Origin: a virus
Taxonomy: Duplodnaviria; Heunggongvirae; Uroviricota; Caudoviricetes
Strand: one strand, 5' to 3'
DNA length: 64,000 nucleotides
IMG/VR virus record: IMGVR_UViG_3300034104_004745
Coordinates: 64,001-128,000 of that record
In this document: one piece after another, positions 2,723 through 59,060 of the stretch
Numbering within the stretch: the stretch's first letter is position 1
How the letters are laid out: every line of letters starts with the position of its first letter
Notes under the pieces: generated by a model
Told to the model about the DNA's origin: nothing
The model's database searches: none
Seen by the model: the letters and a program-made list of their open reading frames with translations, nothing else
Made by a program: the position numbers and the translations under genes

Positions 2723-3253
2723 CTATATGATTTTTAATTTACCATTTTTTATTTGTGATTTTCTAAAAAAAACCAATATAATGTTTCTAATCCCTTCTTT
2801 TATTTCATAAAGCTCATGTTCAAATATTGATTCAAAAAAATAACAGTTACCAATAATTTTTTGAAAATTAAATATTTCGGTATTATTAGTAATGTTCTCA
2901 ATAATAAATTCTCCTCCCTCAAAATCATCATTTAATAATAAACCTAACCCATATAATCTGTTATGAATACTATCGTTGTGCCTATTAAATTTATCTCCCT
3001 TAACATATGTTTGTAAATAAAACTCTTTACTATCCGTATTTTCCCAATCAATAGAAATATTAAATTCTTCGTTTATCCACAATATAAATCTATCTAATAT
3101 CCACTTATCTTCAACGTCATTCATATTTTTATAAGTGTAACTTATACTTGACTTACGTATTTGATTTCCATCGATAGGTTTCAGTTCATACTTTTTTAAA
3201 ATCAAATCACACTCTTCTTTTGAAAAAAGTATCTTTTGTTTTGGTGTAGTCAT
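2723..3253 (-). CDS. 2OG-Fe(II) oxygenase (start probably M13 at 3253)
   Basis: HND...LNDDFEGGEF...HEL...R. The track start at 3289 overlaps the upstream gene. Confidence 0.85.
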   Translation of the reverse strand: MTTPKQKILFSKEECDLILKKYELKPIDGNQIRKSSISYTYKNMNDVEDKWILDRFILWINEEFNISIDWENTDSKEFYLQTYVKGDKFNRHNDSIHNRLYGLGLLLNDDFEGGEFIIENITNNTEIFNFQKIIGNCYFFESIFEHELYEIKEGIRNIILVFFRKSQIKNGKLKII

Positions 3254-3254
3254 A

Positions 3255-3986
3255 TTATATAATAGATTTAGTTCTTTTAAAAGCGCCATCTACGTATTTG
3301 TCAACAAATTCTATCAATTCTGGTGTTTTTGTTATCGCACAGTAATCTATTTTTGTTTGATTAACGTGTGATAATTTGAAATCAACATTAAGTTTTTCAG
3401 ACATATAATCTTCAAATTCCTCTATTCTATCAAAATGAAATTCCTTAACTTTTACTGTATCGTTTAATATCCAATTATATTGTGAAATAAATGTCAATAT
3501 ATGAAGTGAAAAACGATGAACAAATTTATTATCTTTTTTCAATTCTTCGGGAAATTCTAATTCATCAATTAATTTAAGAAAAAGTTTTTTTACTGTATCA
3601 TTATCTCCATACGCGTTAATGAAATCATTATAATTGTTTTTTATAAAATTAATTAAAAATTCATTGTTTTTATTTTTCATTTTATCTAACGTAAAAGAAT
3701 CTAATAACTCGGAAGATTGTGCAATAAAAAATTTCCACGCTGAAATAAATCTATCTGTTGAATTTCTTAGTATACAAACGTAATCTAAATTATCCCCAAA
3801 TGTTCTAATTAAAGATTGTACTTTTGTATGAATATGTTTATTTTTTTGCCCATCCTCCTTCATTGTATTTTCCCATAAAATATTGGTATATTTTAAATCG
3901 AAATTGTATTCCTTACAGGTAAATTCTACTGACCATGATGCGTTTTTTGGTATTGGGATGAACGCAATTTTATCATTTATGACCAT
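3255..3986 (-). CDS. Sulfotransferase family 2-like protein
   Basis: FIPIPKNASWS (PKxAS 5'-PSB) and LRNSTDRFISAW (RxPxxRxxS-like 3'-PB). Confidence 0.8.
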   Translation of the reverse strand: MVINDKIAFIPIPKNASWSVEFTCKEYNFDLKYTNILWENTMKEDGQKNKHIHTKVQSLIRTFGDNLDYVCILRNSTDRFISAWKFFIAQSSELLDSFTLDKMKNKNNEFLINFIKNNYNDFINAYGDNDTVKKLFLKLIDELEFPEELKKDNKFVHRFSLHILTFISQYNWILNDTVKVKEFHFDRIEEFEDYMSEKLNVDFKLSHVNQTKIDYCAITKTPELIEFVDKYVDGAFKRTKSII

Positions 3987-3989: not shown

Positions 3990-4553
3990 TTATATAAAAC
4001 TTTTAGTATTTTTAACAACATCTTTTATTTGGAATCCTAATGTTAAAGTTATTCTAGGTTTTTCACCTATTACGGGGGTACTGCCATGTTTAACTTTACC
4101 CGCAACACATCTCCACACCATCCTTTCCTTTAATTCATTTATTTTACCGTTATATATGGAATGTCCTCCTTGTTCGGGATAAGATAGTATAATATTATAT
4201 CTGACATGTGTATACCCATCCACATTCATATCAGTATGTGTGTGAATTGATCCGCCCTCTCTATTAATACCAATGGCATCTTCAAAATTTGGGTCTAATA
4301 TCCAATCGTTAATTTTTTCTACTTCAATTACCCTATCCTTTATCTTTTTTACTATATCTAATGGGGAATTTGGTATCCTATTTAATACACCGATTTGTCT
4401 AGAACCGTATGGTGCATTTATGGTATGACTATTTGTTGTGTTTATTTCAAATAGATGTGAATTAGAATTTGTCCAAAATAAAAGAATTTCTTGTTCTTCG
4501 TTTGTTATAAATTCCTCATAACCATAGGTGTCATTCAACTCTATGTGTTTCAT
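3990..4553 (-). CDS. 2OG-Fe(II) oxygenase
   Basis: HTD...HGSTP...RITL motifs. Confidence 0.85.
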   Translation of the reverse strand: MKHIELNDTYGYEEFITNEEQEILLFWTNSNSHLFEINTTNSHTINAPYGSRQIGVLNRIPNSPLDIVKKIKDRVIEVEKINDWILDPNFEDAIGINREGGSIHTHTDMNVDGYTHVRYNIILSYPEQGGHSIYNGKINELKERMVWRCVAGKVKHGSTPVIGEKPRITLTLGFQIKDVVKNTKSFI

Positions 4554-4569: not shown

Positions 4570-4692
4570 TTATTGACTCGTAATGTCAGTATAAATAAGA
4601 GTTGCAACCTCTTGCATTATGGTTGCAACATTTGTATTAGTTGTACCACTTGTTGGTACAACTTCTGATGATAAAATTTTTGGTTTTGACAT
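4570..4692 (-). CDS. Small 40-aa Ser/Thr-rich ORF (MSKPKILSSEVVPTSGTTNTNVATIMQEVATLIYTDITSQ)
   Basis: ATG at 4692 after an A-rich leader fills the gap between the 511-aa gene and the oxygenase. The longer 81-aa version in the track overlaps the upstream gene. Confidence 0.5.
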   Translation of the reverse strand: MSKPKILSSEVVPTSGTTNTNVATIMQEVATLIYTDITSQ

Positions 4693-4714
4693 TTTTTTAT
4701 AATTTATAAATTTA

Positions 4715-6250
4715 TTATTCTTTAGGAACTCTTTCTCCTCCGCCGCCACAATAAGAGCAACTGTTACACGACCACCAACTACATCCACCACCAGAACACC
4801 AGCTGTAACACGCATTATGTTGTATAAATGCTAAACCTAAAGTTTCATCTAAAACCGGTAGGAATACATCACTTTGTTCAACATTTATATCAAATATCAT
4901 TCTATTTACATAAACCACCTCTAAATTTGTTATTTTAGATTTAGTTAACGTATCATTAATATAATCATAAAACACAATGGAATCATCTATTCTAAATGTA
5001 TTTGTTAATGCATATGTGGTACGAAGTGTATCAAACTCTTCAATAATCATGTTACTACCAGGTAAATCTTCATATGTTAAACCATTTTCTAAAGTGACTT
5101 TAATCATTAAACATTCTTTTTGAGCTCCACTTATTTCTTCAACTATTGTTGATGAAGTTGTAAATACTGTAAGGTCGTCTGTAAAATTATTACTGTTCAC
5201 TCCAGGTATAAAATTTGGGATGCCGTCGATTAATTCATCGTCAAGGGGTACCCACGGAAGTAGTAATGTTTTTAATGTACTATTAATCGTTATTTGACTT
5301 GGTAACACTAAATCACCTTCACCATTTAAAATTTTTGTATCATTGTCTAAAATGTAAATCTCACCAAGGGTATTTGGTGATTTAGTCATCCATAGTACTC
5401 TAGATGATTGTGACATCAAACCATTTGAATCATACTCTGTTGGCCATTCATCATGTTTAACTTGTGAAGTCATTATATATGACCCCAAATGTAAACAACT
5501 AAGTGTTCCTCCATATAATATATCTAAACTTCTAATTACACCCATTTTTTCATTCACAATATTATCAGAATGAGTGTGATACTCTTCCATGTATTCCGAT
5601 TCAATTAATGATTCTTTCAATAATTGTAAATTTTCTAATGATGTGATTTTATACAATTTCGGATATGTAACAAGATTTCTATTAGGATATCTAGGTTTAA
5701 CAATGTAATTTGGTGTATCTCCATTTGTAATATGTAAATCGGTTAATTGGTCAATATTTAAATAGGTATCAACATTAGATGAATAGAATATGTTTGGTGA
5801 ATATGATTTATTTTGAATCAATCTATGAAAATTAACTTTATCTTTCGTATATTCTTCATCCACAACCGCTGTGGTATCATATGATGTTCTTATGATTAAT
5901 GTGTTATCACCGTCCTCAATATATGGAACCGTTATTGAATTATGTGCCACTTGGTGAAAGGTAAATGAACCATCTAAATCACCTATAATTTCTTCCATTT
6001 TATCTTTGATGGTAACATCATTAAGATTCGTACTAAATGCACCATCTTTTTCACTATAAATGATATTTCCCTCAGTTACAATAAGATGTAAATTATTTAT
6101 GGAATTATCTATCAAAAATTGCCTAAAAGAGTCCCAATCTAAATTTGGTACGATTTTATTATGTACATCAACATTCGTATTTGTTTCAATTATTCTTAGA
6201 TTTCCGTTTGAATCTTTTAATAGATCCGTACCAATTATTACTGCTTTCAT
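4715..6250 (-). CDS. Circularly permuted ATP-grasp + Hint (intein-like) domain + C-terminal six-Cys peptide fusion
   Basis: N-terminal GTD..D.NG..IIETN, then DK, IVKP, EEY, R. Hint-like region ILDNDTKIL...IKVTLENG...IFDINVE...FIQHN, followed by ACYSWCSGGGCSWWSCNSCSYCGGGGERVPKE. Confidence 0.7.
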   Translation of the reverse strand: MKAVIIGTDLLKDSNGNLRIIETNTNVDVHNKIVPNLDWDSFRQFLIDNSINNLHLIVTEGNIIYSEKDGAFSTNLNDVTIKDKMEEIIGDLDGSFTFHQVAHNSITVPYIEDGDNTLIIRTSYDTTAVVDEEYTKDKVNFHRLIQNKSYSPNIFYSSNVDTYLNIDQLTDLHITNGDTPNYIVKPRYPNRNLVTYPKLYKITSLENLQLLKESLIESEYMEEYHTHSDNIVNEKMGVIRSLDILYGGTLSCLHLGSYIMTSQVKHDEWPTEYDSNGLMSQSSRVLWMTKSPNTLGEIYILDNDTKILNGEGDLVLPSQITINSTLKTLLLPWVPLDDELIDGIPNFIPGVNSNNFTDDLTVFTTSSTIVEEISGAQKECLMIKVTLENGLTYEDLPGSNMIIEEFDTLRTTYALTNTFRIDDSIVFYDYINDTLTKSKITNLEVVYVNRMIFDINVEQSDVFLPVLDETLGLAFIQHNACYSWCSGGGCSWWSCNSCSYCGGGGERVPKE

Positions 6251-6271
6251 TATTATTTTTTATTATTTATA

Positions 6272-6279
6272 TATAAATA
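6272..6279 (-). promoter_or_regulatory. Putative late-promoter motif TATTTATA
   Basis: Exact motif about 21 nt upstream of the ATG at 6250. Confidence 0.5.
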
Positions 6280-6287: not shown

Positions 6288-6929
6288 TTAAATTAACGAT
6301 GAGGTCTTCTTAACGAATTCCAAACCAATATTTCCCGCTAAAACTATTCTATCAATTGTCGAATTTGGGGCATTTTTAGGAGAATGGGGTACATCTGCTT
6401 GCATAATTATTAATTCGTCTTCCTCAGGTTTAACCCAATATTCGACACCTTTTTTATTTTTAAAGTACAATACCCCATCATCACCATTCATAACATCAGG
6501 CATTTGAATATAATAAACAAAGGTAAAGTCGGGGTGGAACGTCTTTAATTTTTTATTAATATCCGTATGGACGTGGTATTTGTCGACATTATTTTTCCAA
6601 AATTCTGTTTGCACTGGTTTTTTATGTCTAATTCGATTTACCCAAGTTTCTAGGTTAACTTTATTAAAAGGGATGTTATCATCCTCGTATATTTTTTTAC
6701 ACTCATTAATTCCTATTTGTGTAATTTCGTCCATTTTATTTGATATATTCAATTCACCTGATGAATTTATAGAGTCCGTCCAATATATAACACCAAATCC
6801 ATCATGTTTAGATTCCGGTTGGGACTTTATTATTTTGTTAGCCTCTTCCAATAAAGAATCTTTGTATTTTACCAAATTTAATTTTTTTTTCCATATAAAT
6901 GTATTTTCATCAAAGTATATTTTTTTCAT
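6288..6929 (-). CDS. Putative 2OG-Fe(II) oxygenase (TIGR02466-like type)
   Basis: HVHTD, FTFVYYIQMP, G.L.F, PHSP, RIVLAGN. Confidence 0.75.
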   Translation of the reverse strand: MKKIYFDENTFIWKKKLNLVKYKDSLLEEANKIIKSQPESKHDGFGVIYWTDSINSSGELNISNKMDEITQIGINECKKIYEDDNIPFNKVNLETWVNRIRHKKPVQTEFWKNNVDKYHVHTDINKKLKTFHPDFTFVYYIQMPDVMNGDDGVLYFKNKKGVEYWVKPEEDELIIMQADVPHSPKNAPNSTIDRIVLAGNIGLEFVKKTSSLI

Positions 6930-7534: not shown

Positions 7535-7756
7535 TTATAAAATATTCTTATTTTTTAACCCATACTTAATCCACCTATACCATACCCTTTCATGAATATA
7601 ATATTGAATTGGTTTATATACTAATTCAGCAACACCAAATGCTGCGCCAACCTTAATCGAACCACTTATCCACCACATTATAATAAACCCAATTAGGGTG
7701 CTTATAACACGGTACGAAATGGTTTTTGCAATGTGTCTTTTACGTTCTACTACCAT
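7535..7756 (-). CDS. DUF2061-like small membrane protein
   Basis: RHIAKTISYR...two hydrophobic segments...YYIHERVW. Confidence 0.75.
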   Translation of the reverse strand: MVVERKRHIAKTISYRVISTLIGFIIMWWISGSIKVGAAFGVAELVYKPIQYYIHERVWYRWIKYGLKNKNIL

Positions 7757-8102
7757 CTGAATTTATTAATTTATTTCTTATTGCAGTTCCACTTATTTCA
7801 GCAATTTCTGTGGGTGGTTCGTGATAAATAACCTCGTATCCAACCCCTCTACCATAATTAACCGATTCAATATCTGGGATAATAGATACGAGAATCTTAT
7901 CAAAATTATTGTTGAAGAAAGGTTCTTGTATTAACATCTGAAAAACTTCTTGTGCCGTCTTTGGGTTGTTTTCGTCAACTTCAACATCTCTAATAGCAAC
8001 CCATACATTTTTACCTTGGTTTAATTGTTGATTAATCAACCATTCGTGACCTTTGTGCCAGTTCTGCCATCTACCGATGTATAGTGCGTATTTTTTACTC
8101 AT
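7740..8102 (-). CDS. HIGH-family nucleotidyltransferase (NadM/cytidylyltransferase-like)
   Basis: IGRWQNWHKGH and C-terminal ISGTAIR. Confidence 0.8.
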   Translation of the reverse strand: MSKKYALYIGRWQNWHKGHEWLINQQLNQGKNVWVAIRDVEVDENNPKTAQEVFQMLIQEPFFNNNFDKILVSIIPDIESVNYGRGVGYEVIYHEPPTEIAEISGTAIRNKLINSDGSRT

Positions 8103-8533
8103 AATGTTATGTTTTTTAATAATTTATAATATGAATCTGTTTCATTATCTGTTGTTGTGTCAATATCAATAAAGTTTTCTGTTGGTGCTTCATATTCAGT
8201 AACGTGAAATGATTCACGACCTCTAATTTCAGAAGTGTGAACATATATTTCAATAACAGAATTTTGTGATTTAAAACGATCTCTTTGATCTTTATACGGT
8301 GCAACCAATGAAACAACAACGTCGAATCCTTTGCTATTCATAAATTGAGCAATATATTGAGCTCTTTCGACATTCGCACGTCTACCATACTCACTATAGT
8401 CCTTATTATTGAATGCGTTTCGTAAATCGTCACCATCAATGTGGATGACATTGTCTTTAGGGAAGTGTTCCACTAAATATTTTGCTAATGTGGTCTTACC
8501 AGCACCTGGTTGACCTGTAAACCAGTATATCAT
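8099..8533 (-). CDS. cysC: Adenylyl-sulfate (APS) kinase (start probably M10 at 8533)
   Basis: WFTGQPGAGKTT, IDGDDLR, R.ANVER, VVSLVAPY...RDR, YEAP. Confidence 0.9.
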   Translation of the reverse strand: MIYWFTGQPGAGKTTLAKYLVEHFPKDNVIHIDGDDLRNAFNNKDYSEYGRRANVERAQYIAQFMNSKGFDVVVSLVAPYKDQRDRFKSQNSVIEIYVHTSEIRGRESFHVTEYEAPTENFIDIDTTTDNETDSYYKLLKNITL

Positions 8534-8579
8534 ACTATTAATATAAGGAATTATTTTCAAATAATCAAATAATCAAATA

Positions 8580-11476: not shown

Positions 11477-12208
11477 TTAAATTATTTGTCTTTTTTGTGA
11501 AGTGTCATTTTTTTTGCCCGATCCATAGAATTCTGAGTATAATTTTTCATTATATATAATCGTATAGTCAATAACCTCATGTAAATGCTTTGAAAGGGTT
11601 TTATGCCCATTTTCACTATAATGAGAGTCTTGTACTTTATTTTCGGTTTCTTCTTTGATGGTTTGGATTTTTGGTATGGTTATGACATCCATTCCGGGGA
11701 AAAAGCCAGAAAAAGGTGACCAATGAATTACCAGATTATTTTTAAATGTACGATTTATTAATTTAATTAAACTATTTAATTCATTAACATAGCAAGAATT
11801 ACCGTGTCTATTAACTAAGATTTCTTCCATAGTATTTATTGAAATCCCCATTAAATCACAACTTATTTTTTTTTGGTTATTGTCCCAATTAGAATGCATT
11901 GTGGTAAATTTACCAAATTTATTTGCCAATCTAGCCCTCTCAATACTAGACCAACCAATAATAATAATATCACCATCTTTTATTTCATCTATATTTTTCA
12001 CAATAATCTCAAGTATACTTTGATTATCTGCACCTCCATGCCCCCTATTAATACAAGTATATCTAAAATCTTCAGATAAAAAATCAGTAAAAACTTTAGG
12101 TACGTACTCTTTATATTCAAAGTATTTAGCTCTCCAATCCGATAGTCCTGGGACAGGGGCTAAAGATTGTGTAAAAGAATCACCAAACGCCCAAATTTTT
12201 CTTTCCAT
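11477..12208 (-). CDS. SGNH/GDSL-like esterase or acyltransferase
   Basis: FGDSFT (block I Ser), GHGGADN (block II), DSHYS (block V DxH). Confidence 0.75.
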   Translation of the reverse strand: MERKIWAFGDSFTQSLAPVPGLSDWRAKYFEYKEYVPKVFTDFLSEDFRYTCINRGHGGADNQSILEIIVKNIDEIKDGDIIIIGWSSIERARLANKFGKFTTMHSNWDNNQKKISCDLMGISINTMEEILVNRHGNSCYVNELNSLIKLINRTFKNNLVIHWSPFSGFFPGMDVITIPKIQTIKEETENKVQDSHYSENGHKTLSKHLHEVIDYTIIYNEKLYSEFYGSGKKNDTSQKRQII

Positions 12209-12278: not shown

Positions 12279-13544
12279 CTATATCATTTTTTCATTTATG
12301 AATCCGTGTATCTTTAATCCTATCTCATTTTCAAATTTTTCCAATCTTAAAGTATCTAAAGTTTCGTTATATTTCTTAAACTCTCGATACAAATCAAATC
12401 TATTTAAATCATCAACATCACTAATACTAAAAAGATAGATAGAATCTAATAATTCTATTATCTCTTTATTAATATCGTCACTAACACCTAACGATTTTAA
12501 CTCTTGATTAAAGGTTAATAAACGAGTTTTAAACCTATCTTTAATTTCATTAGATATCCATTTACAACTTAAATAATCAGGACCATATATTGGATTTATC
12601 GCCAACATTCTTCTTCGTGAATAATCTATATTTTTTTCAATAAGACCTTGGTTAATTAATTCAAGAATCATATCAAATGTATGTAGATAATTTAGTGCCC
12701 CATAAGAAAAAGTATAAAAAATATGTGAATTAGTTAAAAATTCTGATACTTTTTTAGCATTTGTGATAAAAGTTTCAGTTTTAAATCCAGATCTTATATA
12801 CTCGCCTACACTACCTAAACCGTCTAAACTAGGAAATAATGTGATGTTATTAAAATGAGACCAATAATCAAAAATATGTTTATTTTTAAACGTTATTTTT
12901 GATAAATTGGTGCTATATCTTAAATAAACTTGTTTGTTTCTTTTTATTATCTCATCTAATATTTCATAATGATGCTCACTTATTAATGGTTCGCCACCAG
13001 CAAAATATATTTCATCCACATATTCATAATGATCACCTAATTGTTTTAAAAAATCATTTGTATCATCTAAAGTTATTATTGCTTGGTTACTATGTGACAT
13101 ATTCATACTAACAGCATCATTAAACCAAGATGAACTAAACCCATGATAACACATCCTACATTTAAAATTACATAGATTAGTGATTCTAATATCCCACAAA
13201 TGAAACTTTGTTTCGTCATAATCAACATAGTCAACACATTGTGGATAATCTCTATTTAATCTTTGTCTATATGATTCCGAGTTTAATTTCTCATTATTGA
13301 TACAATTAGAACATTGTTTAACAAAATCACCAGATATCATTTTACTCTTAATATCTTTAGATTTATCTGATTTATAAATCTCATTTAATGTTGATTTATT
13401 AATATTGCCAAGAGGATCATTTAAATCCCAATTACAACACGGAAGAACATTACCATTAGGATGAACATAGACACTCATCCAAGGCGCAACACAAAAAGAT
13501 TTTGAATCAACTAGTAAAGATTTCTTCTCATTTTCATTCATCAC
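12279..13544 (-). CDS. N-terminal twitch radical SAM protein
   Basis: FCVAPW..PNG..PCC, C..C, CNFKCRMC, AGGEP, YSTN. Confidence 0.92.
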   Translation of the reverse strand: MMNENEKKSLLVDSKSFCVAPWMSVYVHPNGNVLPCCNWDLNDPLGNINKSTLNEIYKSDKSKDIKSKMISGDFVKQCSNCINNEKLNSESYRQRLNRDYPQCVDYVDYDETKFHLWDIRITNLCNFKCRMCYHGFSSSWFNDAVSMNMSHSNQAIITLDDTNDFLKQLGDHYEYVDEIYFAGGEPLISEHHYEILDEIIKRNKQVYLRYSTNLSKITFKNKHIFDYWSHFNNITLFPSLDGLGSVGEYIRSGFKTETFITNAKKVSEFLTNSHIFYTFSYGALNYLHTFDMILELINQGLIEKNIDYSRRRMLAINPIYGPDYLSCKWISNEIKDRFKTRLLTFNQELKSLGVSDDINKEIIELLDSIYLFSISDVDDLNRFDLYREFKKYNETLDTLRLEKFENEIGLKIHGFINEKMI

Positions 13545-14749
13545 ATAAAGTAGTTTACTAAAGTTGGGTAATTTGTTTTAACGATATCGATAGTCGATTC
13601 ACTTCTATAACCATCTAATATCGTGAATTTAGTGTATTCTCTTCTTAGTTCATCATCAGTTGGTTGTTTACTGTACATAAATTCAATCAACGCATTGATA
13701 TCGTTTGTTTGTTCCTTAAAATCAAATGTTTCCCAGTGTGATTTTATTCTATCTTTTTCTTCTTTAGGTAACATATAGATTGACATATGTGGTGGGTAGT
13801 GAACAATGTTTAACCAAAAATCAAATAGAGGCGTGTTATCTCTCATCCATTGGATAGTTTTTGGTAACTCGTACGCATTTACCCAAGAAGTTGTATGTGT
13901 GTAGGTAAACCCTAAATTCCTATACTTCTTTCTTAGTTCGTGGTACTTAAATAAGTTTTCTTTTACCTCACCCCACACCGCATTTTTTCTTAGGTACTCA
14001 AACGTACCTTCGGTTCCGTCAATACTTAACCCAATACCAACTGCTTTAAATCCTTCACAGATTTTAATCATTAGATCTTCGTTAAGAATGGTGCCGTTGG
14101 TGGACATATTTAACAATATATTTTTACTATGTCCTTCGTTAATCATATGTGTTAAGACTCTTTCCCAGGTGTTCGAATAGAAAGGTTCCCCACCAACAAT
14201 TTCAAGCCTTCTAACGTGAGGTAACCAAGTATCCATACTAGAAATAAATTCACTTGTTTGGTGACCTGGTTGCCCATGTTTTAACCCGAAATAACGAATA
14301 CCAAATTTTTCCCATTCTGATTCTGGAATATCGTTTACTTCCTTCAACCAACTAGTACTATGACTAGGTGAACAACTTCTACATTTTAAATTACAAGAAT
14401 TATTTAAAATTATCTGGTAGTCTTCAGGATATTCAGGGACTTTACCATAATCGACTGTTGTTCCATTGTTTTTTAAAATTTCAATATATATTTGCCTTTT
14501 GCTTTTATAACCATTCTCTTCATCCTTCCAACACGTTTCACATCCTTTTGGTTTTTCGCCATTTAAAAATTGTGTTCTTAAATTTTCCATGTACTGACTA
14601 TGAAATATGTCTTTAACTGTATCGTTTTGAACATAAAAAAAAGAACCGTCTGGTTTTACTACATAATCTTTATTTATACAACAAGGTTTTACGCTTCCAT
14701 ATGGATCATTTGAAAACCCGACCCAAGGTAGTGGACATATATGTTCCAT
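13541..14749 (-). CDS. N-terminal twitch radical SAM protein (start probably M10 at 14749)
   Basis: ICPLPW...KPCC, CETC, CNLKCRSC, VGGEP, STNG. Confidence 0.92.
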   Translation of the reverse strand: MEHICPLPWVGFSNDPYGSVKPCCINKDYVVKPDGSFFYVQNDTVKDIFHSQYMENLRTQFLNGEKPKGCETCWKDEENGYKSKRQIYIEILKNNGTTVDYGKVPEYPEDYQIILNNSCNLKCRSCSPSHSTSWLKEVNDIPESEWEKFGIRYFGLKHGQPGHQTSEFISSMDTWLPHVRRLEIVGGEPFYSNTWERVLTHMINEGHSKNILLNMSTNGTILNEDLMIKICEGFKAVGIGLSIDGTEGTFEYLRKNAVWGEVKENLFKYHELRKKYRNLGFTYTHTTSWVNAYELPKTIQWMRDNTPLFDFWLNIVHYPPHMSIYMLPKEEKDRIKSHWETFDFKEQTNDINALIEFMYSKQPTDDELRREYTKFTILDGYRSESTIDIVKTNYPTLVNYFM

Positions 14750-14750
14750 A

Positions 14751-15944
14751 TTACTTAAAATATTTTTTCCATTCATTTAAGTAGTCTGTTATTTTTACAT
14801 TTCTAGATGTATCCAATAAATTAACAAACCCATAAAATTTTTCTTCATCATTATTATTTTTTGGCTTAAACAATTCAATTTTTAATCTTTCAACTTCATC
14901 TGGCCTCATGTATTTGATATTAGTAATAATTTCAGTTTTCATATCATCTGGAATAATATTAACCTGTTGAAATGAAGGATAATGTACATAGTTGTGTGAA
15001 ATAACTAAATCATAATCTAATGTGAATTTTTTAAAATTATCAATATTAAAAACATTATACGCACTAACTGTTTGGCAAACTTCTAAATTGAAAATATCTT
15101 TATATTCGACGATTTTTTTAAAATTTTCAAGTATTTGTCCCCAACTAGATCCATGTCTTATATAATCGTTTCTTTCTTCTAAATCATCTATTGATAAGTG
15201 AATTCTAACTTTCCTAAATTTCTTCCATATCTCTATGAATTTATCAGGTACTGCTGTCATATTGATACTATAATGTAAATCAACGTTTCCACTAGTACCA
15301 TCCGAAATAAATTTCTCTAAGAAATACCCGTGTTCCCTAATTAAGGTAGGTTCTCCCCCATTTATCCATATTTCTTTTAGCTTATTACACTTAGTGTATA
15401 GTTCGTCATAGAATGAGTGGTCTCTAAACCATTCAGTTCGTATATCACATTTGAAATAATCGTTTTCAAATTGAGTACCTTTAAATGAATGTATATCTTC
15501 ATTCCATCTATTTGATGAAAAAGGATTACAAGTAACACATTTTAAATTACAAACAGTACCAAGTCTCAATTCAACATAGTTGTAATTCACATCTTTAAGT
15601 GAGCCGTCTTCGTTAGTGTTAGTAAAACATTTCTCAATAAACTCTTCAAATTTTTTATTTGATTCGATTCTTTTTGATTCAACACCACCTTGTTCGTACT
15701 TGTAACATTTTTGACAAACGGATGGGAATTCCCCATTCATCATTTGTTTTCTAATATTATTAAACTTACTAGTATTTGTTATATCATTCAATTTATCTTT
15801 ACCCAAAAAAAGATGTTTACCATCAGGGTGAGCTGCGGTTGAAATACTATTAGTCATATCGGTTATACAACAAGGTGTAACCGTTCCAATTGGGTGTGTA
15901 GCTAAATGTATCCAAGGTAAAACACAAAATGATTTACTTTCCAT
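14751..15944 (-). CDS. N-terminal twitch radical SAM protein
   Basis: FCVLPW...TPCC, CQKC, CNLKCVTC, NGGEP. Confidence 0.92.
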   Translation of the reverse strand: MESKSFCVLPWIHLATHPIGTVTPCCITDMTNSISTAAHPDGKHLFLGKDKLNDITNTSKFNNIRKQMMNGEFPSVCQKCYKYEQGGVESKRIESNKKFEEFIEKCFTNTNEDGSLKDVNYNYVELRLGTVCNLKCVTCNPFSSNRWNEDIHSFKGTQFENDYFKCDIRTEWFRDHSFYDELYTKCNKLKEIWINGGEPTLIREHGYFLEKFISDGTSGNVDLHYSINMTAVPDKFIEIWKKFRKVRIHLSIDDLEERNDYIRHGSSWGQILENFKKIVEYKDIFNLEVCQTVSAYNVFNIDNFKKFTLDYDLVISHNYVHYPSFQQVNIIPDDMKTEIITNIKYMRPDEVERLKIELFKPKNNNDEEKFYGFVNLLDTSRNVKITDYLNEWKKYFK

Positions 15945-17296
15945 TAAATTAATATTTTACTATTATTTTGCCACCATTGAAGTACTCGTGGGTTTTGACT
16001 GAATATCTCATCAATCACCCCCACATTGTTTCTCCATAAATCAACAGCGTTTAAATTTTTTATTCCTCTTTGTAGCCCTTCTTGCCAATTAGGATACTTC
16101 TCTTGAAAAGTCTGTCTATTTTTTAAATCCTCAAGACACGTTATCCAATAATCATATTTATGATTCTGTTGGATTTTAGGTCTAATATAATCTAAAATAT
16201 CATCAATTACTTCGTTATAAATTTCTCTAGGTAGTACCTGTGGACACATAATGATACTACTATCAAACGCAAATGTGGTTTTAATTAATGTGTGAACATT
16301 TAACTCTAAGGACAAGTCAAATAATTCCTTTAAACTAAAAAGACCTGGTGTTGTGATTGTTAAATCAAACGCAATACCGTAATCACCATATCTTTGATTT
16401 AAGAACATAAAGTCCTTAAAGTTTTTGATCCATTCATCCCATCTTATACCGTGACGAACATATTCAACTATCTTACCTGTACCATCAATTGATGCGCATA
16501 TTTGTACTTGTTTGAAATGTGGTAAGAGAGTTCTTAAATCATAGTCTTTATAAGTTGTTCTTGAGAAATTAGAATTATATCTAACCCACACATTTTTTGC
16601 CCCACCTGTTTTAACTAGGTAATCCATAATCTCCCAGTGAATGTCCCACATTAATGGTTCGCCACCAACCCAATAAATCTCCTCAATTGTACCATTCTTA
16701 ACCGCTTCCCATAGTTCCTTTTCAGCAACGTCTTTTTGAAATGATTCAATAATTGGTTTATTTTGTTTTTGTGCCCAGTAATCGGTATTACCCTGTGCAT
16801 CATAGTGGCCCATAGATCTTCTTTCTGCTTCCCAAGAAGATGATAATTGATCCCCACACATTCTACATTTGAAATTACATAAGTTTTTAATTCGATAATC
16901 AAATGAAATAGGTTTCATCTCAGTATGACCGTCATCATTTGTCTTTTCAAATGCTTCCTCAATCTTGTGTGGAAATAGTGTTTTATTAAAGTAGTCACGG
17001 TATATTGAAATGTTCAATAGTTTATCGTTACAAACAGCACACTGAGGTATTTCTTTACCTTCCATTAAATCTTTTCTGATACCTTTCATATAATCAGAAT
17101 TCCAATGGTCGTCTAATGTTCCTGGATTATATTGTGAACCATTATCAGCACTTTCAGAATCAAGGTATTGTGTTGCCCAAGATGCTTTCTCCCTACTCGC
17201 ACAACAAAGTCTTCTTTCACTTTGTGGTGAAAGATAGGTGTGTGACCAAGGAGCCATACAAAATGTTTTATTTCCCTCAGATGGTTTTAATTTCAT
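15944..17296 (-). CDS. N-terminal twitch radical SAM protein
   Basis: FCMAPW...RLCC, CAVC, CNFKCRMC, VGGEP, NSN. Confidence 0.92.
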   Translation of the reverse strand: MKLKPSEGNKTFCMAPWSHTYLSPQSERRLCCASREKASWATQYLDSESADNGSQYNPGTLDDHWNSDYMKGIRKDLMEGKEIPQCAVCNDKLLNISIYRDYFNKTLFPHKIEEAFEKTNDDGHTEMKPISFDYRIKNLCNFKCRMCGDQLSSSWEAERRSMGHYDAQGNTDYWAQKQNKPIIESFQKDVAEKELWEAVKNGTIEEIYWVGGEPLMWDIHWEIMDYLVKTGGAKNVWVRYNSNFSRTTYKDYDLRTLLPHFKQVQICASIDGTGKIVEYVRHGIRWDEWIKNFKDFMFLNQRYGDYGIAFDLTITTPGLFSLKELFDLSLELNVHTLIKTTFAFDSSIIMCPQVLPREIYNEVIDDILDYIRPKIQQNHKYDYWITCLEDLKNRQTFQEKYPNWQEGLQRGIKNLNAVDLWRNNVGVIDEIFSQNPRVLQWWQNNSKILI

Positions 17297-18533
17297 CTAT
17301 ATTTTCTTTTTCAAATACCTCAATAAGATAAGGATATAATGACCTCCAATCTGTGTTTCGTCTTTGGTCGATTTTATCTAAATAATCCCTCAATCTTTTA
17401 AGTTGTGTTTTATCAACATCGTGAGTTGTCACTTGTTTCTCAAAACCATATAAGTAAAGTTTTCTGTGATCTTCTTCCGGTACTGCGGAAAGTAAATCTT
17501 CAAAAAATGATTTAGCGTGATGCCCTAAATTTTCAGGATTCATAAACGTTGGTCTAGCAACTGTGTTCCAACCAAAATCAACTTTCTTTATTTTATTCCA
17601 CTCGATTATCTTTCTGTAGAATTCACCCATCGTAGGTAAAGTAACAGGTGTAATGGTTGAGTGTACTGATATCTTTACAAGTGGTGATGTTAAAAGAGTA
17701 TTAAAATTAGTTTCCCATTCAATTAAATCCATACCAAATCTAGCAAATTCCGCTTGTGGCCCCCAACAATCCATACTGCAAACAATTTCAAAAGATTCTA
17801 ATTTTTTTTGTTCAATTAGTTTTGAAATTCTTTCTATTTTTTCTTTGAATTTACTTGGGTTGTGTTTGAGATTACTGAATATTTTAAAATTTGTGTTTGG
17901 ATGTTCATGTCTTTCAAAAAATTCTAAACATTCCTCAAATTCTGGTTGATACATAGGTTCACCACCTAAAATTTGGAAATGATATAAATCTCTAGAATTT
18001 TTTTCCATCCAAACCCAGAAATCCGCTTTAAGTTTGTCATAATCATCCCTACCGTGGAAACCATCCAAATCGTATTCACTCTCAAGTGGCCCAAATTTTT
18101 CAATCTCATTTTGAATTAGTGAGCTAAAAAAAGGTGAACAATAAACACATTTTTGATTACAAACATTAGTAAAATACACCTCCAATATTCTTGGTGTTAC
18201 ACTTAATTCTTTTGGATTAAGTTTTAGCTCTTTAGGTGATAATAAACTATCATTAATGTATGCTGTTCTTTCACTAATTCCTCCAGAGTCTTCTATTTTT
18301 TTACAATATTCACAACCATTACCTGGCCATTGTCCATCTAACATTTTTTGTCTATCCGATAATTTACCAGGATGGTTATGGAAGTCTTGCATGTGTTGAG
18401 TAACATCCCATCCCTTACATCTATGACAACTTGACGATGTTCCAACAGACAAAAATAAAGTGCTCCATGTCCATTTAAATTGACAAGCAGTTTGTGTTTT
18501 AATTGGAAATATATCTTCTATATTATGTGGCAT
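17277..18533 (-). CDS. N-terminal twitch radical SAM protein (C..KW/SCH subtype)
   Basis: ACQFKW...SSCHRC, CEYC, CNQKCVYC, LGGEP. Confidence 0.92.
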   Translation of the reverse strand: MPHNIEDIFPIKTQTACQFKWTWSTLFLSVGTSSSCHRCKGWDVTQHMQDFHNHPGKLSDRQKMLDGQWPGNGCEYCKKIEDSGGISERTAYINDSLLSPKELKLNPKELSVTPRILEVYFTNVCNQKCVYCSPFFSSLIQNEIEKFGPLESEYDLDGFHGRDDYDKLKADFWVWMEKNSRDLYHFQILGGEPMYQPEFEECLEFFERHEHPNTNFKIFSNLKHNPSKFKEKIERISKLIEQKKLESFEIVCSMDCWGPQAEFARFGMDLIEWETNFNTLLTSPLVKISVHSTITPVTLPTMGEFYRKIIEWNKIKKVDFGWNTVARPTFMNPENLGHHAKSFFEDLLSAVPEEDHRKLYLYGFEKQVTTHDVDKTQLKRLRDYLDKIDQRRNTDWRSLYPYLIEVFEKENIDEIKTI

Positions 18534-20101
18534 TATTTATTTTTTATAAAGTTTAACATTTCATCTTGTTGGTCAGGTTCAACAAAGTCTTGTGCTCCCG
18601 GGTTTGCCCATTGAGGGTCCAAAACCCACCCTTCTTTCTTAGCTGTTTCCATAACTTCATCAACATACCTATTTGATTTTGCATCATCACCATCAATAAC
18701 ACTTTTTAATGGTTCTAATTTGGTTTCAGGTATTGAATCCCACCATTCTTTTAACTCTGGAAATGTCTCAACAAAGTTTTTGTTTCTTCTTATATCATAT
18801 TGAGTGTAAAAAGATTTCCAATCTCTTTCTCTAGTCTCAATTGAAGATGTAAAACTATGCCCCGTTTCTACTTGTCTAATATAGGCCACCATTCTTAACA
18901 TACCATCTCTTTCCCAATCTTGGAAAAAATTAGCACCGCCGTCGTAGTTTTTATTTATCCAAGCTTCAATGTGATCTGCTCTTTCTTCCCTAATATGTTT
19001 TGGTAATGTAACAATAGACATAAAAGATGGAAAACGAAGAATATTGAAAGAACAATGTGGGGATGGTGTTTTATATTTTCTTTTTAGTCTTAAGATTTCA
19101 TCCATAAAATCTGTAATTTTAAATAAACAAAGAGCATTAATTGTCATCATACAATTTATAGATTTAACATTACCTTCACTTAACATTCTTTCAACGTTTC
19201 TTAACCATTTTTCCCATACAAGGCCGTCACGAATGTATTCAGCTTGAGCTCCAACAGTTTCACAACTGGTATAAAGATGAAAACTTTTAATATTATGGCT
19301 AGCTTTTATTAACTCTTCAAATAACTCATCTTTTTGACCTAAATTAGAATTAACAGCGAAATCAACATTACAGTCTTTATGATTTTCCCACCATTTCATC
19401 AATTTCCAAAAATCTTGTGACATGGTTGGTTCACCACCAGTTACTCTTAGTTCTCTTAAACTAAACTGCAATTCACCTTCCCACCATTTCCAAAAAGCCT
19501 CAACATATGGATTATCTTTATTTTTCTTACCATATGGTAATGCATGCGCACCATCATGTTGAAATGCTGCTGCACCGTCACTAACTAAATTTTGATATGG
19601 GCCATTCTTTTTAATGTCATTTTGCCACGTTGTTGAAAACGATGCGTTACAATACGAACATGCAAAATTACAATTAGGGTCAAAAGCAATCTCTAATGTT
19701 TTTAGATCAACATCTTCTGTCCAACCAAATTTAGTTTTAGCCTCCAACAATTCCTTGTCAGTGTAAATTATAGATTTATAAACTCTATCAGATACTTTAT
19801 CAGGGCCAAGATCTTCAATTTTCCAACAATACTCACACTCTTTAGGTCTTTCACCCTCAAGCATTTGTTTTCTGATTAATTTTTTATATTGAGTATTATG
19901 GATAGCTTTATAGCTTTGTGCAACCTCTTCTAAAGGTATTTTATGTGCAGGTGGGTGATGACAACTAGCCGTTGTACCATTTCCTAACCATATGGTTGCA
20001 TTATACCATTTAGCACCGCAAAATGCTGGTGATATTGAATTAACTGCACGATTTCTATATTCAATATAGTTTTCGCCTTCTTTTTTTGAGAAAATACCCA
20101 T
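18533..20101 (-). CDS. N-terminal twitch radical SAM protein (C..KW/SCH subtype)
   Basis: FCGAKW...SCHHP, CEYC, CNFACSYC, TGGEP, NSN. Confidence 0.92.
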   Translation of the reverse strand: MGIFSKKEGENYIEYRNRAVNSISPAFCGAKWYNATIWLGNGTTASCHHPPAHKIPLEEVAQSYKAIHNTQYKKLIRKQMLEGERPKECEYCWKIEDLGPDKVSDRVYKSIIYTDKELLEAKTKFGWTEDVDLKTLEIAFDPNCNFACSYCNASFSTTWQNDIKKNGPYQNLVSDGAAAFQHDGAHALPYGKKNKDNPYVEAFWKWWEGELQFSLRELRVTGGEPTMSQDFWKLMKWWENHKDCNVDFAVNSNLGQKDELFEELIKASHNIKSFHLYTSCETVGAQAEYIRDGLVWEKWLRNVERMLSEGNVKSINCMMTINALCLFKITDFMDEILRLKRKYKTPSPHCSFNILRFPSFMSIVTLPKHIREERADHIEAWINKNYDGGANFFQDWERDGMLRMVAYIRQVETGHSFTSSIETRERDWKSFYTQYDIRRNKNFVETFPELKEWWDSIPETKLEPLKSVIDGDDAKSNRYVDEVMETAKKEGWVLDPQWANPGAQDFVEPDQQDEMLNFIKNK

Positions 20102-20104
20102 ATT

Positions 20105-20686
20105 TTAAATTTTATGTATAAAGTTACAGTTTCCTGTTAGATCAAAGCTTTTATTGTGAATGTACTTTTCAAAAGTATGTTCAGCTATTATTTCATTGTC
20201 TTTCTCAATTAAGAGATATTCTAATATAAATGAAAAATAGTTTAAATTAAAGCCGTTTTGTGGGAAATTACCTGAGCCAAATATTATGTGAGATTCATTA
20301 TTTCTCGCTAATTTCTCAATGATTTCATGACTTATTAGTACCTCATCATTTATTGATAAAGTAATATTATTATCGATCTTATTTATTTCTAAAACAGTTA
20401 TTTTATTGGGTTCTAGAGAAAAATTAGCTTGTAGATACTTTGAATCTTTAGTGTTATCAGTTAATATCAATGTAACATAATTTTGATCAAAATCAACACC
20501 AAAATATGATGGTAATTTAGAAAATAATGTAGATCTTTTTTCTATCTTTTCCTCAGTTTTAAAGATCATTTTAAATTTAAAATTACCATCGTAATCAAAG
20601 ATTTTATTAGCGGGAAAATCAATAAAATTCGCGACTAAAATATCGGGCCACATTAGCCAAGGTTCACCTTTATTTATTTTTAACAT
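20105..20686 (-). CDS. Hypothetical protein, possible LamG/concanavalin-like beta-sandwich (start probably M31 at 20686)
   Basis: Beta-rich pattern ITLSINDEV...IIFGSG..P....F resembling the LamG inserts of the neighbouring GT7 genes. Confidence 0.5.
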   Translation of the reverse strand: MLKINKGEPWLMWPDILVANFIDFPANKIFDYDGNFKFKMIFKTEEKIEKRSTLFSKLPSYFGVDFDQNYVTLILTDNTKDSKYLQANFSLEPNKITVLEINKIDNNITLSINDEVLISHEIIEKLARNNESHIIFGSGNFPQNGFNLNYFSFILEYLLIEKDNEIIAEHTFEKYIHNKSFDLTGNCNFIHKI

Positions 20687-22052
20687 AATTGTATAATTTT
20701 TCAAATTCTGGAAAGGTTTCCAAAAAATTAGTTCCTCTTCTTCTATCATGTTCGTCAACAAATAAAATAAAATCATTTCTATTTAAGTCTACATTGAAAT
20801 CATCTTCACTTATTGAATAATCATATAGTCTCTTTATTTTTTGTACTTCGACGTCTGAAAATCCATAATTGTCATGATTAAAACTAGGTGATGCATGATA
20901 AAACACCTTTTTAGCCATATCTAAAATTAAATCTTTATGATCTTTTTCTAGAATTTTAACAGACATGTGGGAAGGCCACCTTAAATAGGTGGTATCTAAC
21001 TGCACAGCAGATATCCAATATCTTTGTCCGTTATGATATTTCTTTTTTAGTTCGAAAACTTTATCTATAAGTTTTGAATAACCAAAAACAGACATTGCAT
21101 TAAATGTTGCCATTATATTTATTGTTACTTTAGGTAATTCACTCAAAATATATTCAACATTTTCTAAAAATAGATCAAAATTTAAACCATTTCTAATATA
21201 TTCGGCTTGACTACCCCATGACTCACAGGAAGTAAAAATAATAAATTCATTTACCTTTTTTTCATTTATTATTATTTTTGCTTTCTCAACAAATTTCTCA
21301 ATTAAACTTTTAGGTGAACCTAAATTAGTGTTAATGGAGAAATTAAGTTGTCTATTTGGGTTTTCATTTGTACATAAAAAATCTAAAACTTCCCAAGTAT
21401 CTTTAGATAATAATGGTTCACCACCAGTAATTCTGAATGTATGTAAGTCTCTATATAATTCTGGCCACCAATTCCAAAAAGAATCTACATAAGGATTTTG
21501 TTCGGAATGTTTATATGGCATTTGACCAGATTTTCTTAAATGCTCAATTTCATTGAACTTAAATGAAGTTGGATAAGCACCATAACGTTCGATCTCCTCC
21601 ACCCATTTGGACGAAAATGACGGGCCACAATATGAACATTTGAAGTTACATGTATTTGAGAAACTTACTTCAACATATTTTGGATTATAATTTGCTCTCC
21701 AGTCTGCTGTTTTAATTTCATTTAAAAATGGTTTAGACCACGGTTCACTACTTTTAAAAATTCTATCTGAATGTGAATTTGAATTCTCTTCAATTTTCCA
21801 ACAATAGTTACATTCACCTGGTTTTATACCAGATAACATTTCTTTTCTAACCTCCTTTTTGTACCTAGTATTATGTAAAGCTGTTGGATTGTTTTTTATT
21901 TCACTTAAAGGTATTTTATGTGGTGTTGGATGATGACAAGAATGTGTCATACCATTATGTAAATGCATTGTTACTTGCGTCCATTTTGCAAGACAAAACC
22001 CACAACCAACACTGTCTAATTTTTCTTTTATATCGTCGTGATCTCTTTTCAT
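20670..22052 (-). CDS. N-terminal twitch radical SAM protein (C..KW/SCH subtype)
   Basis: FCLAKW...SCHHP, CNYC, CNFKCSYC, TGGEP, NTN. Confidence 0.92.
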   Translation of the reverse strand: MKRDHDDIKEKLDSVGCGFCLAKWTQVTMHLHNGMTHSCHHPTPHKIPLSEIKNNPTALHNTRYKKEVRKEMLSGIKPGECNYCWKIEENSNSHSDRIFKSSEPWSKPFLNEIKTADWRANYNPKYVEVSFSNTCNFKCSYCGPSFSSKWVEEIERYGAYPTSFKFNEIEHLRKSGQMPYKHSEQNPYVDSFWNWWPELYRDLHTFRITGGEPLLSKDTWEVLDFLCTNENPNRQLNFSINTNLGSPKSLIEKFVEKAKIIINEKKVNEFIIFTSCESWGSQAEYIRNGLNFDLFLENVEYILSELPKVTINIMATFNAMSVFGYSKLIDKVFELKKKYHNGQRYWISAVQLDTTYLRWPSHMSVKILEKDHKDLILDMAKKVFYHASPSFNHDNYGFSDVEVQKIKRLYDYSISEDDFNVDLNRNDFILFVDEHDRRRGTNFLETFPEFEKLYNYVKNK

Positions 22053-54836: not shown

Positions 54837-56360
54837 TTATTGAGTTTTCTTATTGTAAGAAGCCATTTGCTTAATTCTTTGAATTTCTTCAGAAATAACT
54901 TTTTTAGACTCTTCTTTGGATTCTTTAACTTCTCTTGAAGGCTGTACATCTTTATTGTACATTTTCATACTTGCCTCTTGTTTATCTTTTCTCTTAACCT
55001 TTTTAATAATTTTTTCACCTAGTTTGCTTGGGATTACGTTTGCAGCATCTTGTGAGTTACCCATTTTAGTATCACCTTTTAATGCTTTTTCGTGTCTATC
55101 CTGAGCTTCTTTTGATGGATCTACATCATAAATTAAATCTTCTAATCCACCACCTCTATTGTCAGCAACTTCTTCAGATTCTTCATCATCTGTTCTTCTT
55201 GCTTTCACTTCTCCACCGATTTGATTTGGAAATTCTGGATTATCGTTACCATCGAAATTTAAAAATTCTTTAATCTTTTTTTCAACATCAGATAACGCGT
55301 CATCGTTTTCTTTACCACTTTGCTTGTGTACCGTTTGTTGTAATTCAACACCTGGAACAGCTTCACTTACCATTTTTTTAATAAGTTTAATTAAATCTGA
55401 TTCATTTAAACGAATTGATTTTTTACTTTCGTTTGTCATAGAACCGCACTCACATAATTCTTTACCACACTTTTCACACATACCACCTTGGCCCTCATCT
55501 ATATCATCGTCAGGATTATAGTCTGAAGACGTAACACTATAAGGTTCATTTTCACTGTTTGAAGCTTCAACATAAAAGAAAGAATTAGGGAACATATCAG
55601 ATAAGCTATTAACTCTACTTTTAGCCTCTTCTTCTGTGTCATAAACACCTTGATACCCTATTTCGCCATAACCACCATCTTGTAATACGTGGTAATATGT
55701 TTTTTTATGATCATCTTCCTTCATATCGGAACCACACTCATAACATTCTTCTTCCTCATCCATTGCTTCATCAGCATCAGCATCTTGAACAGGATAGGTT
55801 TCACCATCAACAGTGAATTCATCTTCACCATTTTTTATTGCTTCAGCTCTAGCAGCGCTAAATGCGTTACCTTCTGCTGGCTCAACTTTTTTAATTTTAG
55901 CAGTCAATTCTGACATATCATAGTCTTCTAAAATGTCGAAAACACGTTGTGCTGGTACTTTACCTTCATATGCCTCACATAATTCCATTAAATCTTCTTT
56001 AGCTTCTGAAATAACATTTCCAGCCTTATTTGCTAGTTTAGTTACTTGATCAATTGTAAAGTGACCTTTATGTTTTGTTTCATTAATATTTTCCATGTTT
56101 TCTAGTTTTTCTGACATTTTATCTAATTCTTCAAATGATAATTTTTCACCAGGTTCAATGATTAACTCTTGATCTGGGTTATCTTTTTTATATGTTTCTA
56201 AGGCTTTTTGAGCTTCTTCTTCAGTTTCAAACTGTTCAATTGGCTCACCTTGTTTATTTTTAATAATATAAACCTCACCTGAAATCCCTTCCAGAATAGC
56301 GTTTTTTATTTCTCTGGTAATTGATTCTTTTATAATGTTTTTCAATTCTTCGGTTTTCAT
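54837..56360 (-). CDS. Acidic protein, putative head-internal or scaffold protein
   Basis: Glu-rich; IRLNESDLIKLIKKMVSE, VISEEIQRIKQM, AFSAARAEA..GEDEFTVDG motifs. Confidence 0.45.
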   Translation of the reverse strand: MKTEELKNIIKESITREIKNAILEGISGEVYIIKNKQGEPIEQFETEEEAQKALETYKKDNPDQELIIEPGEKLSFEELDKMSEKLENMENINETKHKGHFTIDQVTKLANKAGNVISEAKEDLMELCEAYEGKVPAQRVFDILEDYDMSELTAKIKKVEPAEGNAFSAARAEAIKNGEDEFTVDGETYPVQDADADEAMDEEEECYECGSDMKEDDHKKTYYHVLQDGGYGEIGYQGVYDTEEEAKSRVNSLSDMFPNSFFYVEASNSENEPYSVTSSDYNPDDDIDEGQGGMCEKCGKELCECGSMTNESKKSIRLNESDLIKLIKKMVSEAVPGVELQQTVHKQSGKENDDALSDVEKKIKEFLNFDGNDNPEFPNQIGGEVKARRTDDEESEEVADNRGGGLEDLIYDVDPSKEAQDRHEKALKGDTKMGNSQDAANVIPSKLGEKIIKKVKRKDKQEASMKMYNKDVQPSREVKESKEESKKVISEEIQRIKQMASYNKKTQ

Positions 56361-56361
56361 A

Positions 56362-57680: not shown

Positions 57681-57682
57681 TG

Positions 57683-59040: not shown

Positions 59041-59060
59041 TTCTGTAATAAAAGGTGTCG

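Follow-up and report, generated by a model that had tools for sequence, protein, structure and literature searches.

The bacterial polymorphic toxins that carry a PT-HINT domain (PF07591) combine a conserved body, a Hint domain and a fast-changing C-terminal cargo, which the Hint domain is thought to release. Hint domains that cleave and do not splice are also found among the A-type bacterial intein-like (BIL) domains, as in the BUBL proteins of Tetrahymena, where a ubiquitin-like domain lies between two BIL domains (BIL-ubiquitin-like-BIL; 6Y75 and 6TMM). Hint-mediated release of a variable C-terminal cargo is already known from these toxins and from the BUBL cassettes. In the borosin precursor OphMA (omphalotin), the modifying methyltransferase and the C-terminal core peptide form one polypeptide, from which a separate protease sets the core free. 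Six-Cys mini-proteins such as the cyclotides are ~30 residues long and have hypervariable loops between their six conserved Cys. Here we analyze P0001, an open reading frame (ORF) in a 64,000-nucleotide stretch of viral DNA, referred to as the window, which comprises bases 64001-128000 of a 198,825-bp uncultured virus record (IMG/VR record IMGVR_UViG_3300034104_004745). P0001 resembles the PT-HINT toxins in its layout, and joins an ATP-grasp ligase domain, a Hint domain and a Cys-rich tail. On balance, we consider it probable that this protein, from a large uncultured phage, processes itself and contains both an enzyme and a peptide, i.e., that it is a self-cleaving ligase-peptide fusion.

A ligase, a Hint domain and a Cys-rich tail in one gene

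The window has a G+C content of ~30%, and its minus strand carries nearly all genes. An earlier, sequence-only reading had placed on this strand, at 4715-6250, a protein with ATP-grasp motifs, a one-sided Hint domain and a six-Cys peptide. The ORF is a genuine 511-amino acid gene, and every motif named in that reading was found at a conserved or structurally equivalent position. The observation itself, namely that these motifs and domains lie in one ORF, was confirmed, and the interpretation given to it is partly supported. The features under discussion are the following:

4715..6250, minus strand: ligase-Hint-tail ORF (P0001), 511 amino acids plus stop, with ligase, Hint domain and Cys-rich tail
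5375..6250, minus strand: ATP-grasp amide-ligase domain as modelled, residues 1-292, of the permuted GS/GspS/YgiC type (AlphaFold model, Foldseek, VIA, invariant residues)
4814..5353, minus strand: degenerate Hint domain, residues 300-479 (AlphaFold model, Foldseek, VIA, hhalign, conservation of His-Asn)
4814..4819, minus strand: codons of H478-N479, with the predicted scissile bond N479-A480 directly after (His-Asn conservation, structural mapping)
4718..4813, minus strand: hypervariable tail, residues 480-511, the predicted released peptide, with six Cys, a single Lys and low model confidence
4570..4692, minus strand: gene of a 40-amino acid micro-protein with stop (coding 4573-4692), which starts 22 nucleotides after the stop of the big ORF; predicted ligase subunit of one beta-strand and one helix

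P0001 has 184 relatives in a 90%-clustered protein collection, annotated as hypothetical wherever they are named. The family amounts to 241 representative clusters at 50% identity, 141 of which were retrieved at E <= 1e-10. A search of one genome from each of 185,579 prokaryotic species gave three matches only, all on 2-5 kb contigs of metagenome-assembled genomes. We take these three as mis-binned viral DNA and, because the prokaryotic matches are so few and all on such short contigs, the ligase-Hint family is treated as virus-only. Full-length P0001 found no meaningful match in Pfam or in PHROGs, including the PHROG structural families, and no tblastn match in GenBank phage records. Its full-length profile retrieved only chance nanobody matches from the PDB sequences, and the window DNA from 54837 to 60326 had no blastn match in phage records.

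To place the N-terminal part, residues 1-292 were modelled with AlphaFold (AF2) from a 69-sequence alignment (A2), and the model had a mean predicted local distance difference test score (pLDDT) of 94.4. The best Foldseek matches in the PDB were eukaryotic glutathione synthetases (GS), E. coli YgiC/YjfC and glutathionylspermidine synthetase (GspS), with E-values of 2e-5 to 1e-3. VIA-align gave a Z-score of 10.0 to YgiC (7uk8; root mean square deviation (rmsd) of 3.9 Å, 213 residues aligned), 9.6 and 9.5 to the yeast and human GS (1m0w and 2hgs), and 9.2 to GspS (2io7). The alignments with GS, GspS and YgiC were co-linear across the whole model, from residue 1 to 292; those with the classical ATP-grasps (TTL, LysX/ArgX and the D-Ala-D-Ala ligase Ddl) covered the model from residue 51 onward only, with Z-scores of 5-6.5. 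The permuted order of the ATP-grasp motifs, which had been pointed out from the sequence, is real, but it is not new, as it corresponds to the known topology of eukaryotic GS, GspS and YgiC.

Seven residues (D9, E22, N24, R121, D131, P180 and K185) are invariant in the 69 homologues; D9, E22 and N24 make up the N-terminal GTD...ExN motif, and K185 is the Lys of the IVKP motif. When a profile of the N-terminal domain was compared with PDB sequences, only sub-threshold ATP-grasp motif matches were obtained, in which GTD...ExN aligned with the Mg-binding E...ExN of biotin carboxylases (E 0.37-1.9). K212 and the EEY triplet at 222-224 are also present, and the ATP-phosphate Lys and adenine hinge (K185, K212, EEY) are assigned by motif only. 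The language-model neighbours of the domain are ATP-grasp families, which serves as a lead only. At the level of the modelled fold and of its motifs, residues 1-292 are an ATP-grasp amide ligase of the GS/GspS/YgiC type, which bears out the fold assigned to residues ~1-290 from the sequence. All close structural neighbours of the domain (YgiC/YjfC, GS and GspS) activate the C-terminal carboxylate of a short peptide, and YgiC and YjfC are described as peptide-spermidine ligases (Pederick et al. 2023, as cited in PMC12568646).

The C-terminal part, residues 286-511, was modelled from alignment A3 with a pLDDT of 86, the last ~22 residues being of low confidence. Foldseek matched this model to the hedgehog autoprocessing domain 1at0 (E 2.5e-7, template modelling score of 0.75 by target), to inteins and to BIL2 of Tetrahymena BUBL1. 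The best VIA-align matches had rmsd values of 2.3-2.6 Å over 139-144 residues, with Z-scores of 15.4 to 4o1r (rmsd 2.4 Å, 139 residues) and 15.0 to 6y75 and 6tyy. Model residues 15 to 194 map onto residue 1 to the last residue of many inteins, so that I300 takes the place of intein residue 1 and N479 that of the terminal Asn. In an hhalign comparison of the P0001 Hint profile with true Hints from the C-termini of relatives, a match of 98.7% (E 1.9e-16) was obtained, in which L396 and S399 occupy the columns of the block B Thr and His, and D461 that of the block F His. Modelling and profile comparison agree that residues 300-479 have a Hint fold, as had been proposed.

Intein position 1 is I300, without Cys, Ser or Thr, and in the relatives it is occupied by Ile, His or Phe. 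Of 129 diverse relatives, 122 have the His-Asn (HN) pair at the aligned position, and a full-length alignment of 65 sequences (A5) shows H478 and N479 to be invariant. The residue at +1, A480, is not a nucleophile (Cys, Ser or Thr); among 153 relatives, Ala (42), Pro (36) and Gly (30) are the commonest residues at this position. The domain is one-sided in the way the sequence-only reading had it, without an N-terminal nucleophile or the block B TxxH, and with FIQHN followed by Ala at +1, and the homologues keep the HN. One detail has to be corrected: the Asp regarded as the retained block F residue, D454, is not conserved in the family (Asp, Glu or Ser), and the invariant acidic residues of the domain are D395 and D461 instead. 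As both Cys1 and TxxH are lost, thioester formation is impossible. We conclude that: i) the Hint domain lacks all that an N-terminal acyl shift needs, and ii) it has the residues for C-terminal Asn cyclisation. That it really cleaves at N479-A480 we infer.

The tail of P0001 has 32 residues, with Cys at positions 481, 485, 490, 495, 498 and 501, a single Lys next to the end (K510) and a final Glu; the free peptide would have a mass of 3367.7 Da. Tail statistics were collected from 121 relatives with simple tails. Their median length is 31 residues (range 7 to 66), and 96 of them have exactly six Cys (range 4 to 12); Cys accounts for 19.5% of the tail versus 0.3% of the body. At least one Lys is present in all 121 tails and exactly one in 91, and in 112 the last Lys is the last or next-to-last residue. 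Identity at the non-Cys positions of the tail is 37% where that of the ligase domains is 83%, and the ratio of nonsynonymous to synonymous substitution (dN/dS) was 0.26 for the tail versus 0.10 for the body in a crude Nei-Gojobori estimate with synonymous sites near saturation. The homologues do have the variable Cys-rich tail that was expected of them, and the conserved handle of this tail is the Lys, not the C-terminal Glu that had been put forward. A graspetide reading was considered and rejected: with 2.8% Asp, 1.9% Glu and 3.8% Thr the tail is not a Thr/Ser-Asp/Glu-rich core, and the ligase is of the GS/GspS and not of the RimK type.

Some relatives carry further modules. In those of ~650 amino acids a true Hint (PF14890, 57.9 bits), which starts with Cys and ends in HN, comes after the tail; in others of ~580-650 amino acids a Peptidase_S74 intramolecular chaperone follows directly after the tail Lys (29.1 bits in P0144), and in some distant relatives the tail is missing and the HN runs directly into two or three true Hints. 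Lys is the first residue of the C-extein that follows the extra Hint, or occurs within it (K, KK, AKKF, VNKKQI), and Cys, Ser or Thr is never found at +1; such short C-exteins were seen in P0099, P0132, P0147, P0201, P0256 and others. If the flanks of the extra Hint in P0099 were joined, they would resemble the ending of the uninterrupted tail of P0106. By their sequences, the flanks fit splicing or cleavage of the A-type BIL kind; BIL domains can reportedly splice without a nucleophile at +1. Since self-removing modules follow the tail in these relatives, its C-terminus appears meant to be freed just after the Lys. The near-invariant HN beside a hypervariable tail, the self-cleaving modules after the tail in relatives and the peptide-carboxylate-activating enzymes among the structural neighbours of the ligase all argue for the tail being a separable cargo.

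One relative of 298 amino acids (P0229, L088:77-973) has a signal-peptide-like N-terminus in place of the ligase, then the Hint and a six-Cys tail, and is followed by ORFs of 33 and 95 amino acids. It comes from a single 1.9-kb contig of 3x coverage and may be a chimera; if real, it would suggest that the tail works outside the cytoplasm.

The predicted 40-amino acid partner and the proposed route

The proposal that enzyme, protease and precursor would all be contained in one gene did not stand. In 75 of 77 related loci, a homologue of the micro-protein (33-52 amino acids) is encoded 2-38 nucleotides past the stop codon of the ligase-Hint gene; one of the two remaining loci is cut by the contig end. 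Oxygenase-like and sulfotransferase-like genes are co-conserved as well. An 81-amino acid ORF at 4570-4815 was discarded as spurious, since it begins at an in-frame ATG upstream of the conserved 40-amino acid product, which runs from 4692 to 4573.

The complex of the full-length protein (alignment A5) with the micro-protein (alignment A4) was modelled together with three controls. The interface score ipSAE was 0.83 versus 0.01 for the best control, the partner had a pLDDT of 88, and at least 96% of the contacts recurred between runs. In the calibration of the ipSAE mark, 58 of 80 solved complexes and 2 of 110 mismatched pairs reached it, counts that are only rough when own alignments are used. 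In the model, partner residues 10-14 pair with the ligase strand 257-261, and the partner helix packs on residues 8, 10, 18, 20, 23, 239, 241 and 243. These positions alternate with the catalytic D9, E22, N24 and R240, and therefore the helix would lie on the opposite face of the sheet. The micro-protein also contacts Hint residues 381-445. The model suggests a structural subunit by which a truncated ligase is completed, and not a substrate. A role as a LysW-like carrier of the acyl donor was rejected: the C-terminus of the micro-protein varies and takes no part in the modelled interface, and the protein packs on the face opposite the catalytic one.

The route that we propose for the self-cleaving fusion is as follows. 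The strand of the micro-protein, beside 257-261, and its helix, on the back of the catalytic sheet, would complete the ligase, as the complex model predicts. When N479 cyclises, the N479-A480 bond would be broken and a 32-residue peptide with six Cys and one Lys released. The ligase may activate the C-terminal carboxylate of this peptide, next to the conserved Lys, and the activated carboxylate could be joined to an amine, i.e., that of a polyamine, of another protein or of the peptide's own new N-terminus; alternatively, the ligase might use the amine of the Lys itself. The 2-oxoglutarate (2OG)-oxygenase-like and sulfotransferase-like neighbours, judging from their co-occurrence, may modify the peptide further.

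Several points weigh against this route. No Pfam ATP-grasp model scores above threshold: P0001 itself has no Pfam match, and among the 69 relatives GSP_synth matches two (best E 0.0026) and RimK two (best E 0.011). The block F His, an aid to Asn cyclisation, is replaced by Asp, and inteins that lack Cys1 are often slow in C-terminal cleavage. If the newly exposed N-terminus supplies the amine, the Pro found at +1 in 36 of the 153 relatives would act poorly as a nucleophile. Confidence in the modelled tail is low. Diversifying selection in the tail was not shown, as dN/dS is below 1 though the tail evolves faster than the body. We infer both the self-cleavage and the ligase activity.

A more specific version of the route would be a one-polypeptide, cyclotide-like machine, in which Asn cyclisation by the Hint exposes an amine, and the subunit-completed ATP-grasp joins the two ends of the peptide head to tail or attaches it to a target of the phage or of the host. 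We give this version a rather small chance. If true, it would amount to a hypervariable six-Cys mini-protein made without a separate protease or cyclase, and to a new ATP-driven, virus-only route to ribosomal peptides.

Genomic neighbourhood and rival explanations

The neighbouring genes were surveyed in 60 dereplicated loci. Oxygenase-like, sulfotransferase-like and micro-protein genes are each present in 48-58 of them. The recurrent families, with their positions in the window, are:

2171-2695 and 2723-3289: 2OG-Fe(II)-oxygenase-like, 186 amino acids, 56/60 loci
3255-3986: sulfotransferase-like (weak Pfam match), 248 amino acids, 51/60 loci
1527-2174: family of about 186 amino acids (215 here) with no assigned function, 49/60 loci
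6288-6929: oxygenase-like, 214 amino acids, directly upstream of the ligase-Hint gene, 48/60 loci
no copy detected in the genome of the window: CxxC protein, 95 amino acids, 48/60 loci
11477-12208: SGNH-like, 38/60 loci
no copy detected in the genome of the window: tryptophan halogenase (PF04820, E 2.8e-88), 35/60 loci
491-1522: radical S-adenosylmethionine (SAM) enzyme (homologue of the nearest such gene), 20/60 loci

The 95-amino acid protein (P0290, L052:1784-2068) has a zinc-ribbon-like CxxC...CxxCxC pattern, and in its 48 loci the gene lies directly up- or downstream of the gene pair. The halogenase (L059:2295-3533 and 34 other loci) is encoded ~2.3 kb upstream of the ligase-Hint gene, mostly in a clade whose tails start with C-W-C-P-W. 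A link between the halogenase and the Trp content of the tail (mean of 2.9 with the gene versus 1.5 without) was rejected, as it is seen in one clade only, has exceptions and is confounded by relatedness. The genes of an adenosine phosphosulfate (APS) kinase and of proteins of 120 and 73 amino acids (window 7535-8560, minus strand) travel together near the ligase-Hint gene in 23 of the 60 loci; the counterpart of the 73-amino acid gene in related loci carries DUF2061. This group hints at a supply of phosphoadenosine phosphosulfate (PAPS) for the sulfotransferase-like enzymes. Seven consecutive radical SAM ORFs of 397-522 amino acids occupy 12279-22052 of the minus strand, three with SPASM matches; in the first three ORFs the SPASM domain (~7-83) is N-terminal to the core (120-283), which is an unusual order. 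The window also holds a further oxygenase-like gene at 3990-4553, a carbamoyltransferase, GT7-like glycosyltransferases and fibre genes. At 6264-6279 of the minus strand, TATTTATA and then TATAAATA, the T4 late-promoter consensus, end 13 nucleotides before the ATG of the ligase-Hint gene, whose start has no clear Shine-Dalgarno sequence.

These data bear on what else the protein could be. If the tail were never released, the Hint would be a structural or regulatory scaffold, with the HN serving in folding or in holding the tail, and the six-Cys tail would be a metal-binding or redox-sensing appendage. The loss of Cys1, TxxH and the block F His, i.e., a degenerate domain, is in line with this, and the C-x2-C-x2-C at the tail end resembles metal-cluster motifs; furthermore, the modelled contacts of the micro-protein with Hint residues 381-445 suggest a compact assembly. 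However, a purely structural HN is not expected in 122 of 129 relatives beside a hypervariable neighbour, a length of 7-66 residues with 4-12 Cys is odd for a fixed metal site, and some distant relatives drop the tail and have true Hints directly after the HN. We regard non-release as unlikely.

The alternatives that look to the neighbouring genes appear to us improbable. A released peptide might be the core of a ranthipeptide- or sactipeptide-type ribosomally synthesized and post-translationally modified peptide (RiPP), cross-linked by the eight radical SAM enzymes encoded nearby (the seven at 12279-22052, three of them with SPASM, and the one at 491-1522). Six Cys in ~30 residues recalls the SCIFF peptides, and radical SAM genes also occur near relatives. 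Against this, only 20 of the 60 loci encode a homologue of the nearest radical SAM enzyme, compared with 48-58 for the oxygenase-like, sulfotransferase-like and micro-protein genes, and therefore the radical SAM link to the tail is optional across the family; no leader peptide or RiPP recognition element was seen. We hold it to be just as improbable that the protein is a virion or fibre-assembly factor, the ligase of which would display a Cys-rich disulfide knot on, or ligate it to, a tail-fibre protein. Its gene does lie within a tailoring cluster flanked by tail-fibre genes, a T4-late-like TATAAATA box is located 13 nucleotides upstream of its start, and the ~580-amino acid relatives carry the Peptidase_S74 chaperone, a module typical of trimeric fibres and spikes; but P0001 has no fibre-like repeats or trimeric shaft, both of its domains are globular enzyme folds, and it matches no PHROG structural family.

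Comparison with known systems

The layout of P0001 is covered by no family-library (Pfam, PHROG) model, and its parts are of known kinds. No paper on an ATP-grasp-Hint fusion, or on a bacterial intein-like domain with an ATP-grasp, was among the literature records retrieved, which included comparative genomics papers that do not appear to concern such a fusion. If the steps proposed for the self-cleaving fusion hold, phages of lakes and oceans carry a compact and self-contained route to small cysteine-rich peptides, in which ligase, precursor and means of release come from one gene and the enzyme is completed by a micro-protein. It would comprise a natural Hint domain reduced to pure C-terminal cleavage and a GspS-type ligase divided between a large subunit and a tiny one, and would be a source of ready-made parts for peptide engineering. 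The family is always found in cassettes of tailoring enzymes beside tail-fibre genes, is large and is confined to viruses, and therefore likely matters for infection or microbial competition.

The ligase has in common with YgiC/YjfC, GspS and eukaryotic GS the permuted topology, with the Mg-binding D...ExN ahead of the putative ATP-binding Lys. It differs from them in sequence, the identity being ~10%, and the first 90-120 residues of YgiC and the GS-type enzymes have no counterpart in it. In place of this missing N-terminal part, the 40-amino acid protein is predicted by the complex model to pack in trans on the ligase sheet. Unlike in the borosins, release in the ligase-Hint fusion would be built in, via the Hint. 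The likeness of the tail to cyclotides in size and Cys content is a lead only.

BIL2 of BUBL1 is among the best structural matches to the P0001 Hint (Z 15.0), and the BUBL order is mirrored in the ~650-amino acid relatives, with a Hint ending in HN, a small cargo and a Hint starting with Cys. P0001, in contrast, has only the first, one-sided Hint, its cargo is not ubiquitin-like, and an ATP-grasp is fused upstream. From the PT-HINT toxins, P0001 differs in its Hint, which is without the N-terminal nucleophile and has no match to PF07591, and in its surroundings, where no immunity gene is evident and the downstream 40-amino acid protein is modelled as a ligase subunit. Its cargo is a ~30-residue Cys-rich peptide and not a toxin domain, its body is an ATP-grasp ligase and not a secretion or filament region, and its family is viral.

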